NCBI GenBank assembly: GCA_031283515.1
Contig: JAITBS010000077.1
Span: 1-54,587, forward strand
DNA from: Planctomycetaceae bacterium
Lineage (GTDB): Bacteria > Planctomycetota > Planctomycetia > Pirellulales > Thermoguttaceae
DNA length: 54,587 bases
Reading direction: 5' to 3'
How positions within the stretch are numbered: the stretch's first letter is position 1; the number at the start of each line of letters is the position of its first letter. The translations under genes and the position numbers were made by a program. Positions 24,121-28,760 of this stretch are shown here, in pieces. A model generated the notes under the pieces. It did not search any database. It was not told the origin of the DNA and worked only from the letters and a program-made list of their open reading frames with translations.

Positions 24121-24639
24121 CTCTCTCTCTTATTAACCTTGTATTAACCGTTAAAACACATTGTTCAAGTAATCCGCAGATTATGCAGATTTTCGCCAAT
24201 TCTTTGTAACTATTCAGTAAAATCATTACAAAAGCACCTTATTTCCACCTAATTTTCCTAACAAAACAACCTCCATAGCAAAAAGATAATAACACAATAA
24301 TCTCATTACCTTATTGTTTCTTTTAATGAGGTTGGCGGGCGTGTTATCTATTGGCTACGGAGGTTGGTTTGTTATTAATAGGTAAAAATGAGGTTGTTGT
24401 TCGTTTGTTTATCAAAAAAACAAATAATAGTTAAGGTAATGTATAGCAACCAGTATCTGCAAAAAGATGGTAACTTTTATTAAATTTTATTATTTTTAGT
24501 TTGATACGTTGGGAGAGTTCACCATTTGACAGGGATTTAAGAAATGATAGAATAATCAAGTGTTTATTAAGGATGAAGTAATAGTGGCATTGGATGCCGA
24601 AAAATCCAATAACCGAAATTCGGTAAAGGAGATGATAAA

Positions 24640-24879
24640 ATGATTTATAGTATGATTTTTGGTTTTATGTTTGGTGCTAGTCCGTTTGCTTATATTATTT
24701 TAGCGGTGGTAGCTTTTTTATTTTTTGGTAATCGCCTGCCAAGTGTGATGCGTTCACTTGGGCGAAGTGTGGTCGAATTCAAAAAAGGTGTCGCCGGTAT
24801 TGAGGATGAGTTGGACGAAGCGGTTCGAACCGCAGACGAAAAAGCAACCGCAAAATCCAACGAAAAAACGGAGGTTTGA
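24640..24879 (+). CDS. tatA: Twin-arginine translocase subunit TatA/E
   Basis: AAAGGAG SD sequence. TM helix followed by FGNRLPSVMRSLGRSVVEFKKG. Confidence 0.85.
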   Translation: MIYSMIFGFMFGASPFAYIILAVVAFLFFGNRLPSVMRSLGRSVVEFKKGVAGIEDELDEAVRTADEKATAKSNEKTEV

Positions 24880-24880
24880 G

Positions 24881-25174
24881 ATGGGTTGCTATCTGTTTCT
24901 AACACCTACTCCGTTTCAGATTGTAGTAGTTTTGGTATTAGGGGTTTTATTTTTCGGTAAAAACCTCCCCGATGTTGCACGGCAAATCGGGTTGGGGTTA
25001 ATGGAATTGAAAAAAGGTCTGAATGAATTCAATGACCTGTCAAAAAATGTAACCAATCGATATTCCACCAAAAAATCCTCAACAGCAAACAAACCAACTG
25101 ATTCCAGTGACGAGGAAACAGAAAAATATGAATTGACCGGTACAAAGTTCGAACCGCCCACTTTCTCAGAATAA
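24881..25174 (+). CDS. Second TatA/TatB-family paralogue
   Basis: GGAGG SD sequence, and the ATG lies 1 nt after the tatA stop. FFGKNLPDVARQIGLGLMELKKG. Confidence 0.75.
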   Translation: MGCYLFLTPTPFQIVVVLVLGVLFFGKNLPDVARQIGLGLMELKKGLNEFNDLSKNVTNRYSTKKSSTANKPTDSSDEETEKYELTGTKFEPPTFSE

Positions 25175-25323
25175 ATTACCGAAACTAGTAAAAACTCAAC
25201 CGGTTAAATTTCAAGAATCAACATCTGTTCAATTTAATTAATCACACTTAATTCACCATTCACCTCCGTGTTGTACGTAATTTATTAACTTTTTAGATAA
25301 AATCTTGCTGTTCAAAAATACAG

Positions 25324-26355
25324 GTGTTTTTTATGGTTGTGTTTTTCAAATTACCGGTACAATGTGAACTTGCTCATCCTCACGATTTACTTGCACGGCG
25401 TTTTCTTCTTGATAAAGAGTTGATGGCGAGTTTGTTGAAACATTACGATAATACAGGTGTTGTTCGATTACTTGATCTTCAAGCATTACGGTGTGAATCT
25501 CCAACCACAATAGACAGCCAATTACAGGAAGTCATTGGCGATTTGCGCTTTTCCACAAAATTCAAAAACGGTGCTTATTCGAAAGTGTTCCTGTTTTTTG
25601 AACATCAATCAAAAAAAATTAAATTATATTCGCTTCACTGTTTACGTAAAATATTGGAATTTTACGAAGAATGGGCGGACAACCCTCAAAACGCTATCAC
25701 CGAAAATGGTAAATTTCCGTATCCGCTTGTTGTGGTACTTTATCACGGAGATATTTCATGGAGTGAAGTGTTGCAAATAAAAGATTTAATTGCCGTACCA
25801 CAAGGTGTGGATAGTAACGTGTTATGGTTCCAGATTATTGTAATTGATTTGTCAAAAATTCAACGCGAAAAATTACAAGGACATCCGGCACTCATTGCTC
25901 TTTTTGATACATTACAATCGTATTCGGAAGGAAAATTACCGGAAAGTCTGGAGCGAATCGTCGGATACTTCAACGAAGTTAAAACAGACCCACGAACAAT
26001 AGGTTGGCTAACTTCCATCGCCCATTACGTGTTGGCAGCCGCTAAAATCAGTAAAGATGTTATTGTTCGTGAATTTTCAAAAATTATAGATAAAAAAGGA
26101 GCTGAAAAAATGATTATGTCAACGATGGAAGAATTGTACACAAATGGAAAAATTGAAGGAAGGACTGAAGGCGAAGTTGAAATTTCAATTAAGAATATTC
26201 TTAAATTACTCAACAAACGCTTCAAACGAGTTCCAAAATCTATTTCGAGTGCTGTTAATTCTTATACGGATATTGTGGAGTTGGATTCCCTTTTTGATCG
26301 GGCGTTGGAATGTAAAACGTTGACAGAATTTGAACGAGACCTTGCGCACCGTTGA
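25324..26355 (+). CDS. Rpn-family recombination-promoting nuclease / putative transposase (PD-(D/E)XK, YhgA-like)
   Basis: N-terminal HPHDLLARRFL, DLRF....G....FLFFEHQSK, and a helical C-terminal module. The start (GTG 25324 or ATG 25333) is uncertain. Confidence 0.85.
   Translation: MFFMVVFFKLPVQCELAHPHDLLARRFLLDKELMASLLKHYDNTGVVRLLDLQALRCESPTTIDSQLQEVIGDLRFSTKFKNGAYSKVFLFFEHQSKKIKLYSLHCLRKILEFYEEWADNPQNAITENGKFPYPLVVVLYHGDISWSEVLQIKDLIAVPQGVDSNVLWFQIIVIDLSKIQREKLQGHPALIALFDTLQSYSEGKLPESLERIVGYFNEVKTDPRTIGWLTSIAHYVLAAAKISKDVIVREFSKIIDKKGAEKMIMSTMEELYTNGKIEGRTEGEVEISIKNILKLLNKRFKRVPKSISSAVNSYTDIVELDSLFDRALECKTLTEFERDLAHR
26110..26355 (+). CDS. Possible intragenic RpnS-like small ORF (same frame as the Rpn gene)
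   Basis: In-frame ATG preceded by AAGGAGCTGAAAAA. The same translation-initiation region heads the two downstream cassettes. Confidence 0.4.
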   Translation: MIMSTMEELYTNGKIEGRTEGEVEISIKNILKLLNKRFKRVPKSISSAVNSYTDIVELDSLFDRALECKTLTEFERDLAHR

Positions 26356-26424
26356 AATCATTGTGATATTTCCTGCTGGAAAGTTCAGAACGAATTGTCG
26401 AATACTTTGCAAGGAGCTGAAAAA

Positions 26425-26730
26425 ATGATTATGTCAACGATGGAAGAATTGTACACGAATGGAAAAATTGAAGGCTGGACTGAAGGAAGAATTGAAGGAA
26501 AAATCGAAGGAAGAATCGAAGGAAGAATTGAAGGAAGAATTGAAGGCGAAGTTGAAATTTCAATTAAGAATATTCTTAAATTACTCAACAAACGCTTCAA
26601 ACGAGTTCCAAAATCTATTTCGAGTGCTGTTAATTCTTATACGGATATTGTGGTGTTGGATTCCCTTTTTGATCGGGCGTTGGAATGTAAAACGTTGACA
26701 GAATTTGAACGAGACCTTGCGCATCGTTGA
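26425..26730 (+). CDS. Free-standing copy of the Rpn C-terminal module (RpnS-like), 7 tetrapeptide repeats
   Basis: Near-identical to 26110-26355 except for a 60-bp repeat expansion. Has its own AAGGAG-N8-ATG. Confidence 0.6.
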   Translation: MIMSTMEELYTNGKIEGWTEGRIEGKIEGRIEGRIEGRIEGEVEISIKNILKLLNKRFKRVPKSISSAVNSYTDIVVLDSLFDRALECKTLTEFERDLAHR

Positions 26731-26799
26731 AATCATTGTGATATTTCCTGCTGGAAAGTTCAGAACGAATTGTCGAATACTTTGCAAGGAGCTGAAAAA

Positions 26800-27033
26800 A
26801 TGATTATGTCAACGATGGAAGAATTGTACACGAATGGAAGAATTGAAGGCGAAGTTGAAATTTCAATTAAGAATATTCTTAAATTACTCAACAAACGCTT
26901 CAAACGAGTTCCAGAATCGATTTCGAGTGCTGTTAATTCTTATACGGATATTGTGGAGTTGGATTCCCTTTTTGATCGGGCGTTGGAATGTAAAACATTG
27001 GCGGAATTTGAAGAAGGCCTTGTGTATTTTTAA
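26800..27033 (+). CDS. Second free-standing copy of the Rpn C-terminal module, 1 tetrapeptide repeat and a diverged C-terminus
   Basis: Same SD/ATG context. The last ~12 codons differ (LAEFEEGLVYF). Confidence 0.6.
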   Translation: MIMSTMEELYTNGRIEGEVEISIKNILKLLNKRFKRVPESISSAVNSYTDIVELDSLFDRALECKTLAEFEEGLVYF

Positions 27034-27117
27034 AACATTGTGATCATTTATACCCTTACTGGAAAATTTGTGTTGTTTTCAAAACACGGAGTACCATAAC
27101 AGTTTAATCTATTATCA

Positions 27118-28416
27118 ATGCGAATTGTTTATTTTGATTGTCATTCAGGTATTAGCGGTGATATGACTCTAGGCGCACTCATAGACTTAGGTGTTCCGAC
27201 GGTTTTTCTGAACGAGGCAGTTCGTTCCGTTCTTGATAATGTTCAGATCGAGTCGGAAGTGGTTCACCGCAAGGGATTTCGGGCGACACTTGCGCGGGTT
27301 CGCGTGCCTCACGAACATGTTCATCGGCATCTTTCGGACATTCTAACCATGATTGAACGAAGCCGGTTATCTGATGGTAATAAGGAGCATGCGTCTGGTA
27401 TTTTCCGCATGATTGCTGAAGCGGAAGCCAAAGTTCACGGAGTTGAAGTGGACAAAATCCATTTTCACGAGGTTGGAGCGGCGGATTCTATTGCGGACAT
27501 TGTTGGAGCGGTGGCGGGACTGGACTATCTTCAAGTTGGTGACATTTACGCTTCACCGGTTCCGACAGGTTGTGGAACGATTAACATTGCCCATGGAACT
27601 TGTTCTGTTCCGGCTCCGGCGACAGCGGAACTTTTACGTGAAATTCCTATTGCTATTTCGGAAGTTCCTTTTGAGTTGACCACACCAACAGGTGCGGTGT
27701 TGCTTAAATATTTTGCCAAACATTTTGGTGTACTTCCTGCGATGACGATTCAATCGGTTGGTATTGGAGCTGGCGGGCGTGATTTGGAAGAACAAGCAAA
27801 CATTCTTCGAATTTTAGTTGGTCAATTGGAAACGGAACAAGTTCTTGATTCACACGTTGTTCGTTCACATTCCGCACCGGAACATCAATATGAAGATTTA
27901 CTTGAGAATGTTCCTTATTTGGGTCATGAAGCACCGCATCAACATGAAATACCGCATCAACATAAACTTCCTCTCAAGTCGGAAAAGAATATTCCGATGA
28001 CGGAAGCGGTGTGGATTGTGGAGACGAATATAGATGATGCGAGCGGCGAGTTGATTGGGCATTGCATTGAGCAACTCTGGAATATTTCACCGTTAGATAT
28101 TTGGGCGACGCCTGTTCAAATGAAAAAACAACGTCCTGGAGTTACACTTTCGATTTTGTGCCGTCGAGAGCAAATTGAAGCGATAGAGTCTATTCTTTTT
28201 ACGGAAACGACGACTATTGGCATTCGTCGTTTTCCGGTGGAGCGAACTGTATTACATCGGGAACCTTGCCGGATTGAAACACCTTGGGGAACAATTGATG
28301 CCAAAAAAACGGTTCTGCCCAACGGTAATGAGAAAATTACTCCCGAATTTGAGTCTGTCAAACGTCTTGCAGCGGAAAACAACATTTCTGTGCGGGAAAT
28401 TTTTGAAAGAAAATAA
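27118..28416 (+). CDS. larC: Nickel-pincer cofactor biosynthesis protein LarC (DUF111 family)
   Basis: MRIVYFDCHSGISGDMTLGALIDLGVP, FHEVGAADSI. His-rich insert HEAPHQHEIPHQH. Confidence 0.9.
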   Translation: MRIVYFDCHSGISGDMTLGALIDLGVPTVFLNEAVRSVLDNVQIESEVVHRKGFRATLARVRVPHEHVHRHLSDILTMIERSRLSDGNKEHASGIFRMIAEAEAKVHGVEVDKIHFHEVGAADSIADIVGAVAGLDYLQVGDIYASPVPTGCGTINIAHGTCSVPAPATAELLREIPIAISEVPFELTTPTGAVLLKYFAKHFGVLPAMTIQSVGIGAGGRDLEEQANILRILVGQLETEQVLDSHVVRSHSAPEHQYEDLLENVPYLGHEAPHQHEIPHQHKLPLKSEKNIPMTEAVWIVETNIDDASGELIGHCIEQLWNISPLDIWATPVQMKKQRPGVTLSILCRREQIEAIESILFTETTTIGIRRFPVERTVLHREPCRIETPWGTIDAKKTVLPNGNEKITPEFESVKRLAAENNISVREIFERK

Positions 28417-28760
28417 GGAATTGGTAATATTTTGCGGAGTTTTCGTAAATTTGTTTGCGACAGGAACTCAAGAGGTAGGCGACATTTCTCTGAAAAGCCG
28501 CAACAATTGTTCTGTAATTTACGACAGGTTTTGTATTTTCAATTGCCGCCGGAGAGCGGTTTCCAATCCCAATGCACCGAATAGCACAGATATGAAGGAA
28601 CGGCTATTTTCCTACTAGTTTTTGGCGGCAAAGAGTTGGTGATTATGCTGTTGAGGTGTTATTATTTTGAGTGCTGTTTAACAAAGTTGAATACAAAAAA
28701 TCTGCGTAATCTGCGGACTAAAAATCTACAAAATACCTCCACTCTCTGCGATACGGCAAT

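Follow-up and report, generated by a model that had tools for sequence, protein, structure and literature searches.

Introduction

The rpn genes belong to a widespread type of toxin/antitoxin defence, recognised only recently, in which one gene lies within another: they code for a nuclease toxin, RpnL, and for a small antitoxin, RpnS, which is made from an internal start and is the same as the C-terminal domain of the toxin (Zhong et al. PNAS 2023, PMC10400941). Here we describe an rpn locus from Planctomycetota, located in a 54,587-nucleotide (nt) stretch of DNA from a Planctomycetaceae bacterium (contig JAITBS010000077.1 of assembly GCA_031283515.1; this whole stretch is referred to as the window), in which the predicted antitoxin module is followed by two further copies of itself and a four-residue repeat occurs in a different number in each copy.

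In the Escherichia coli system the long first helix of RpnS is the dimer interface, and it contains repeats of four amino acids (aa), composed of one hydrophobic residue plus charged residues or glycine, which begin 8-20 residues past the Met and vary widely in number among strains (PMC10400941). One extra repeat in RpnCS or in RpnCL abolishes inhibition unless both partners have it (PMC10400941, Fig. 4D text), and a commentary likewise holds that repeat variation blocks inhibition in trans (PMC10400984). Free-standing antitoxin genes, termed RpnSs (for example ypaA downstream of rpnE; DUF4351), originated in independent local duplications, and a deletion or a fusion with the N-terminal part can remove them again; the RpnESs (YpaA) protein has been detected in E. 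coli (PMC10400941). What drives the tuning of repeat number and what role the RpnSs play were raised as questions by the 2023 paper and the commentary; the locus presented here and its relatives give natural data on both, including a natural series of one, two and seven units in near-identical proteins.

The locus is a well-preserved example of the RpnL/RpnS/RpnSs system in Planctomycetota, which extends the known system and is no new kind. Variable repeats, free-standing RpnSs and the loss of inhibition at unequal repeat number are already known since Zhong et al. 2023; new are the quantisation of module length in steps of four residues, the lability of repeat number among syntenic loci, the usual length mismatch between downstream and intragenic modules, and two intact extra copies with recombination footprints. 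The 12-bp repeats are probably the hypervariable four-residue repeats of the RpnS helix in an Rpn toxin/antitoxin-type locus, a reading which takes in the duplication history and the length-orthogonal copies.

Three modules with two, seven and one repeat units

When positions 24800-27600 were read, the last 81 codons of rpnL were found to recur twice downstream as separate open reading frames (ORFs), both on the same strand and each with its own start site, with flanks 86-99% identical to 26110-26355. The region is a planctomycete rpn locus with a predicted built-in antitoxin module and two extra downstream copies, whose flanks are near-identical (for copy 3 only to ~26985) and which carry 2/7/1 four-residue repeats in one predicted helix. 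Its features, numbered so that copy 1 is the intragenic module and copies 2 and 3 are the downstream cassettes, are as follows (basis in brackets; SD, Shine-Dalgarno sequence; 3'UTR, 3' untranslated region):

25333-26355, + strand: rpnL, predicted toxin, a 340-aa Rpn/YhgA-like PD-(D/E)XK nuclease (ORF list, Pfam PF04754)
25324, + strand: alternative rpnL start, GTG, giving a 343-aa ORF (ORF list)
25540-25611, + strand: putative catalytic motif, D70 (25540-25542) and E90-H-Q92-S (25600-25611) (homologue alignment)
26096-26112, + strand: predicted internal start of the intragenic rpnS, AAGGAG (26096-26101), 8 nt, ATG (26110) (sequence)
26110-26355, + strand: intragenic rpnS module, copy 1, 81 aa (translation; matches a hidden Markov model, HMM, of the homologues' C-terminal modules)
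26149-26172, + strand: copy 1 repeat array, 2 units, AAAATTGAAGGA AGGACTGAAGGC, translated KIEG RTEG (sequence)
26356-26424, + strand: spacer 1, 69 nt, with a diverged copy of the ancestral 3'UTR (~26356-26384), an rpnL remnant (26378-26407) and the SD AAGGAG (26411-26416)
26425-26730, + strand: free-standing rpnSs-1, copy 2, 101 aa, cassette 1 (ORF; own AAGGAG-N8-ATG)
26464-26547, + strand: copy 2 repeat array, 7 units, KIEG WTEG RIEG KIEG RIEG RIEG RIEG (sequence)
26731-26799, + strand: spacer 2, same as spacer 1 (56/56 identical), with the SD at 26786-26791
26800-27033, + strand: free-standing rpnSs-2, copy 3, 77 aa, cassette 2 (ORF; own AAGGAG-N8-ATG)
26839-26850, + strand: copy 3 repeat array, 1 unit, AGAATTGAAGGC, translated RIEG, the DNA of which equals the last unit of copy 2

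The 12-bp units follow the pattern ARAATYGAAGGM, encode K/R-I-E-G and lie 13 codons after the ATG in each module. The pattern ARAATYGAAGGM has 8 exact matches in the 54.6-kb window, every one inside the three arrays, against 0.11 +/- 0.35 matches expected from shuffled sequence, where 8 were reached in 0/100 shuffles. Tandem Repeats Finder reported a period of 12 with 7.2 copies at 26461-26546 (score 116), and also a 375-bp higher-order repeat with a 98% match. The units inside the seven-unit array are non-identical (ATT/ATC, GGA/GGC, K/R/W), indicating that this array is not the product of one very recent slippage burst.

The unit counts of 2/7/1 and their coordinates, as given in an earlier examination of this DNA from its letters and ORFs (hereafter the sequence-only reading), proved exact. 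Its description of the flanks as nearly identical is valid for copies 1 and 2 throughout (98-99%, the 3' spacer included), and must be restricted for copy 3, where it is valid only to ~26985.

Three other candidate readings of the repeats were rejected. A frame-shifting, phase-variable simple-sequence locus is out, since with a 12-bp unit all differences are multiples of four codons and the ORFs stay open. The NCBIfam FliH model scored cassette 1 at 20.9 bits against a cut-off of 192, with a match covering the repeat segment only, which is an artefact of repeat composition; antisense ORFs over the arrays, such as 26385-26600 (- strand), are by-products of the repeats. In the JGI collection the free-standing RpnS-like proteins P0060 and P0062 are labelled 'flagellar biosynthesis protein FliH', a mis-annotation stemming from the charged four-residue repeats.

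Family assignment and predicted internal start

The rpnL ORF matched Pfam PF04754 (Transposase_31, YhgA-like) with an E value of 2.2e-24 and 86.6 bits (cut-off 21) over residues 19-222. Its database relatives (n = 56) came almost all from Planctomycetaceae metagenome-assembled genomes (MAGs), as did the closest of them, which are 81-82% identical, and many are named 'Rpn family recombination-promoting nuclease/putative transposase'. From the isolate codes, the related metagenome bins presumably originate from termite guts. All 34 homologues aligned have D70, E90 and Q92 (in E90-H-Q92-S), the motif in E. coli RpnE is likewise IEHQS, and these residues putatively correspond to the catalytic residues of RpnA.

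For the C-terminal part, six of 12 related modules, free-standing or intragenic, matched DUF4351 (PF14261) at E <= 0.01, the best of them with 6.7e-6, two full-length homologues have a precomputed PF14261 match, and a profile of 12 modules aligned to E. coli YpaA with an E value of 8.5e-5 (hhalign). The NCBIfam model RpnA gave 31 bits against a cut-off of 583. The modules had been called RpnS-like in the sequence-only reading, an identity upheld by the PF04754 match, the Rpn-named relatives and the weak DUF4351 matches of the C-terminal modules. The array begins at residue 14 of RpnS, the published range being 8-20, and its unit is made of one hydrophobic residue plus charged residues or glycine; the variable four-residue repeats in the dimerisation helix of E. 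coli RpnS, to which the same reading had pointed, are indeed described in the published work (PMC10400941).

The start sites were compared in 107 related loci from genome and metagenome collections, where modules were located by searching the module HMM against the six-frame translations. All three modules of the window are preceded by AAGGAG, 8 nt and ATG, and in the related loci all 51 intragenic modules and 11 of the 12 free-standing ones have GGAG or GGAGG at a distance of 9-14 nt ahead of the internal ATG. The GGAG is conserved in the intragenic modules of loci down to ~40% protein identity (L001-L094, windows of 25 nt upstream), and the internal Met is nearly invariant among homologues. 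The SD motif is kept across codon phases, being read as AAG GAG GCx (K-E-A) in some loci and AAA GGA GCT (K-G-A) in others; that it is kept despite the change of phase points to constraint at the nucleotide level, that is, to an internal ribosome-binding site and not to constraint on the protein. There is thus good comparative evidence that the internal SD and ATG can yield the C-terminal module separately as RpnS.

Repeat number and cassettes in related loci

Of 56 complete modules, 55 have 25 + 4n residues between the Met and the conserved L..RF anchor, n ranging from 0 to 10. Syntenic groups were defined by all-against-all blastn of the loci. The rpnL genes of group A (L002-L008, flanks with ~80% nt identity) have 3, 2, 3, 10, 5, 7 and 8 units, and a downstream copy is present in L005 (10 units) and L008 (2 units) only; those of group B (L011-L014) have 1, 4, 6 and 5 units, with downstream copies of 2, 3 and 3 units in L011, L012 and L013. 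The window itself is syntenic with L001 (JAITQV010000092.1), another Planctomycetaceae MAG, in the order tatA-rpn-larC, with flanks 82% and 79% identical (compared over window positions 24516-28422), and L001 has a single-module rpn without a cassette. Judging by these alignments, unit number and cassette presence are characters that change on the timescale of species divergence. The sequence-only reading had named invariance across strains as the outcome that would speak against it; numbers differ among syntenic loci of related species, which gives a partial answer only.

A downstream module was present in 10/51 loci with at least 400 nt downstream of rpnL, and two modules were found in the window only; a full-length rpnL plus a downstream module occurs in eleven related loci, from independent MAGs and metagenome contigs. 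The length of the downstream module relative to the intragenic one differs in 8/9 other loci, by -24, +4, -4, -12, -20, -4, +8 and -4 aa. In the ninth, L005 (4778-5512), the units are equal in number (10/10) and the K/R/E-LEG unit order differs, which indicates that the arrays of this locus have been rearranged and kept the same overall length. The E. coli K-12 gene ypaA reads ...GWQEG-KLEG-LHEQ... and the RpnE module ...GWQEG-MHEQ..., a difference of one unit (+4 aa). The paralogue difference within one locus, to which the sequence-only reading drew attention, is therefore real in the window without being unique to it, since K-12 ypaA has one KLEG unit more than the RpnE module. At the K-12 locus (L108; NC_000913.3, 2356904-2358001), RefSeq calls ypaA a pseudogene and rpnE 'inactive', though Zhong et al. 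detected YpaA/RpnESs protein.

The proposal that repeat number is tuned by slippage or recombination, also made in that reading, fits the quantisation in four-residue steps (55/56), the differences among syntenic loci and the mosaic footprints in the locus described below.

Same-species sequences were absent from the collections searched. Exact-protein look-ups in the assembly index (RpnL with its two starts, cassette 1) were empty, the exact 23-nt module pattern matched no metagenome contig, and protein searches outside the window's contig gave nothing closer than 81-82% for RpnL and 56% for cassette 1. A literature search for later work on within-locus mismatch found nothing.

Many related contigs begin or end inside or beside rpn (L002, L003, L009, L017, L030, L034-L049), so that in this lineage assemblies appear to break often at rpn genes. 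One MAG can contain many rpn paralogues, with at least 8 loci in Roe453_bin113 and 8 in Cd354_bin63.

Recombination footprints and proposed origin of the array

The identity of copy 3 to the other two copies is 97-100% up to ~26985 and ~55-68% beyond, with 25/37 identical bases in the tail of the coding sequence and 29/55 in the 3'UTR. Compared with copy 1, it has mismatches at 4/155 positions ahead of the boundary and at 38/92 behind it (Fisher p = 4.5e-15), and its tail peptide is AEFEEGLVYF, as opposed to TEFERDLAHR in the other copies. The 3'UTR of copy 3 matches that of L001 at 38/60 positions; the spacers of copies 1 and 2 match it at 26/56, being more diverged and carrying a 6-bp deletion. 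The greater closeness of the copy 3 3'UTR to L001 indicates that the ancestral, orthologous 3' end sits with copy 3.

A spacer piece at 26378-26407 (twin at 26753-26782) is homologous to rpnL 25941-25970, the codons for ESLERIVGYF, with 24/30 identical positions, a score reached by 1/500 shuffles. This rpnL remnant is out of frame with the cassettes, and the piece also matches the equivalent rpnL position in L001, L006, L007, L008 and L009. Its presence in the spacer suggests that the first duplication used a GGAAA microhomology to fuse the 3'UTR (...CTGGAAA) with rpnL near 25941. The junctions at 26410|26411 and 26785|26786 are identical, and copy 2 combines the upstream context of copy 3 with the tail and spacer of copy 1, as unequal crossing-over in a two-module array would give. 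Likewise, the near-identical 5' parts next to the diverged tail of copy 3 suggest that a gene conversion or a crossing-over ended near 26985.

Two further searches bear on this exchange. In nine loci, identity was compared with distance from the array as a test for a conversion hotspot, and no consistent gradient was seen; a blastn search of the collected loci for a distant paralogue that could have donated the tail of copies 1 and 2 gave general family similarity only and no better donor.

Taken together, these footprints would be explained by the following succession of events. An ancestral single-module gene, as in L001, would have been duplicated in tandem, and an internal deletion of ~125 nt would have trimmed the downstream copy so that it begins at the SD. 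Later unequal crossing-over or gene conversion between modules may have produced the third copy and homogenised the 5' parts, and unit numbers would have shifted in frame through slipped-strand mispairing or out-of-register recombination within the arrays.

It is highly improbable that the modules or their unit numbers are instead an artefact of mis-assembly or strain chimera. Such an origin has to be considered because the source is a metagenome-assembled contig, because rpn paralogues abound in these MAGs and many related contigs end in or near rpn, and because the 375-bp unit exceeds the k-mer length. However, the longest exact run shared by the copy 1 and copy 2 regions is 113 bp, shorter than the k = 119 given in the contig names of related MAGs, so a de Bruijn assembly could resolve the array; each copy has private single-nucleotide polymorphisms and a distinct context (unique rpnL for copy 1, a position between two junctions for copy 2, the L001-orthologous flank for copy 3); the 84-bp array fits within one short read; and the arrangement of rpnL plus downstream module recurs in the eleven independent related loci, 8/9 intact ones of which also differ in units.

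Predicted structure of the repeat helix

The AlphaFold2 (AF2) model of cassette 1, built from a 36-sequence alignment, shows one unbroken helix over residues 3-58, followed by three short helices. The helix location assumed in the sequence-only reading is consistent with this model, which places all seven units of cassette 1 in that one helix. The predicted local distance difference test (pLDDT) score was 58-70 for the repeat segment, exceeded 90 in the C-terminal helices and averaged 81; the RpnL model, with a pLDDT of 80, has an alpha/beta core followed by helices. The continuous long helix of the model is consistent with the published view that the helix grows longer with the repeats. In a standard alpha helix one unit corresponds to ~6 A of length and a net rotation of ~40 degrees, and the seven-unit helix would be ~30 A longer than the two-unit helix.

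Predicted pairing specificity and persistence of the downstream copies

If an RpnS must match RpnL in length to pair with it, the intragenic two-unit RpnS would be its cognate inhibitor, and the seven-unit and one-unit copies would be orthogonal and are predicted not to neutralise the resident RpnL. The extra copies would then not be simple back-up antitoxins, provided that the matched-length rule of E. coli holds here. On this reading they are kept as intact small genes with another length specificity, probably co-transcribed and under selective constraint.

The related loci carry information on this constraint. Eleven of the 12 free-standing modules retain the SD, the ATG and a full-length ORF, including the old, diverged ones of L012, L013 and L025. 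Across syntenic loci, the ratio of nonsynonymous to synonymous substitution rates (dN/dS) is 0.18-0.31 for free-standing copies and 0.21-0.38 for intragenic copies, and for within-locus pairs it is 0-0.84; the comparison has its limits, since concerted evolution or independent duplication can blend the free-standing and intragenic lineages. On these values the free-standing copies look constrained.

That the downstream copies are instead decaying leftovers of duplication, whose unit differences reflect unselected slippage without functional consequence, is unlikely in our judgement, although several observations agree with it. Copy 2 still matches copy 1 at ~99% and is too recent for constraint to be visible; the tail of copy 3 is strongly diverged; frameshifted (L028, 1605-2680) and truncated (L058, 4069; L076, 1567) modules exist, which indicates that downstream copies can decay; ypaA carries the RefSeq pseudogene flag; and a downstream module is found in the 10/51 loci only. 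Against such neutrality stand the retention of SD, ATG and full ORF in 11/12 free-standing modules, their cross-species dN/dS, which is not above that of intragenic copies, and the detection of YpaA protein in E. coli (PMC10400941). Moreover, all length differences are multiples of 4 aa, so that both the reading frame and the helix register are kept.

As to why length-shifted copies would be kept, our first preference is that a matched extra antitoxin would over-inhibit the toxin, so that only length-shifted copies would be tolerated, and that variants of other lengths may be the targets of these copies. Second comes a reservoir from which recombination could replace the C-terminus of rpnL, and third come neutral leftovers. 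In its strongest form, the proposal that mismatch is the rule and not an accident, with downstream copies orthogonal by design, either as a recombination reservoir or as antitoxins or decoys directed at non-resident length variants, is put forward as a doubtful one; under it, the mosaic copy 3 and the middle copy bounded by two junctions would make the 2/7/1 locus a snapshot of the process.

The reservoir can also be taken by itself, as a store of alternative C-termini from which recombination (deletion-fusion or gene conversion) would reset the helix length of rpnL and rpnS in one step, and the switched pairing specificity could, for example, escape a phage-encoded RpnS mimic. This is a tentative explanation. 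The modules are direct repeats, with near-identical tracts of 53 bp and >110 bp flanking the arrays, the sharp mosaic boundary of copy 3 and the identical junctions show past exchange between modules, some E. coli strains have the rpn N-terminal region fused to the rpnSs region (PMC10400941), and mismatch is usual (8/9 other loci plus K-12). Yet no recombinant alleles were observed, the collections searched holding no same-species sequences; the direct orientation makes deletion-fusion irreversible, with loss of the cassettes; there is no site-specific recombinase or inverted-repeat architecture; the repertoire is small, one or two cassettes; and no consistent identity gradient marks the arrays as conversion hotspots.

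Returning to the reading of the locus as an Rpn system with length-orthogonal copies under constraint, a number of points weigh against it. The matched-length rule comes from a single E. coli protein (RpnC) and a one-unit change, and may not hold in a planctomycete; toxicity, interaction and expression at this locus are predictions from its sequence, and the contig is a metagenome assembly. The three modules of the window score 17.5, 18.0 and 21.8 bits for DUF4351, under the Pfam cut-off of 25, and no PADLOC model matches the locus. The neighbours of rpn are housekeeping genes (SecDF, AroA, TatA, LarC, ArgB, CinA), and the surroundings are not a defence island. In the structural predictions, the pLDDT of the repeat segment is low and a glycine at every fourth residue is unusual for a helix; Foldseek searches of both AF2 models against the PDB gave no match with E <= 0.001 (the list for RpnL contained scattered restriction and nicking endonucleases at E ~0.1-0.5, which were not counted as evidence), and neither the protein nor a 34-sequence profile found a meaningful match among the PDB sequences; the RpnAS crystal structure was recovered by none of these searches. 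Finally, copies 1 and 2 are so alike that the intactness of copy 2 says little on selection, and the dN/dS of the copy 3 tail against copy 1 is 0.64.

Genomic neighbourhood and annotation

Two small membrane-protein ORFs lie just upstream of rpn: 24640-24879 is TatA/B/E (PF02416, 3.2e-9), and 24881-25174 is TatA-like by eye, without a Pfam match at 1e-5. A promoter and terminator scan found no terminator-like site from 25100 to 27200, and the absence of an intergenic one makes co-transcription of the modules plausible; on the + strand the promoter scan gave nothing exceeding the shuffle expectation, and it is uninformative on promoters for this phylum. Cassette 2 is present twice in the protein collection (P0058/P0059; 77 aa and 83 aa, from alternative starts). 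Cassette 1 (26425-26730) itself did not appear in the search of that collection, which suggests that the seven-unit gene is apparently uncalled on the contig.

Comparison with known systems

As an analogy only, and for the reservoir explanation, the locus resembles Neisseria pilE/pilS in having an expressed gene, nearby partial paralogues and mosaic tracts; unlike pilS, the cassettes here have their own SD and ATG, are probably expressed, number two and stand in tandem direct orientation, with no evidence of programmed conversion.

A closer parallel in the use of repeats is the HsdS subunit of EcoR124I and EcoR124II, with TAEL x2 and x3 respectively, which is cited by Zhong et al. (PMC10400941). 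There the number of four-residue repeats in a helical spacer alters specificity, as it would here, and in both cases the 12-bp repeat changes in frame; in type I restriction it is the spacing of DNA-recognition domains that is set, whereas here it would be the pairing of nuclease and inhibitor.

With E. coli RpnL/RpnS (RpnA-E, RpnP2) the locus shares the YhgA-like PD-(D/E)XK domain, an internal SD and ATG, four-residue repeats in a helix that is predicted here, and variable repeat number among relatives; it differs in its planctomycete host, presumably from the termite gut, and in its weak sequence similarity to the E. coli proteins. The pairs rpnE-ypaA (rpnESs) and rpnC-rpnCSs of E. coli are like it in having, directly behind the gene on the same strand, a second module that arose by local duplication and has a start of its own. 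They have one free-standing copy each, whereas the planctomycete locus has two, with a wider spread of units (2/7/1), and here, unlike in either E. coli pair, an rpnL coding remnant in the spacer documents the joint of the duplication.

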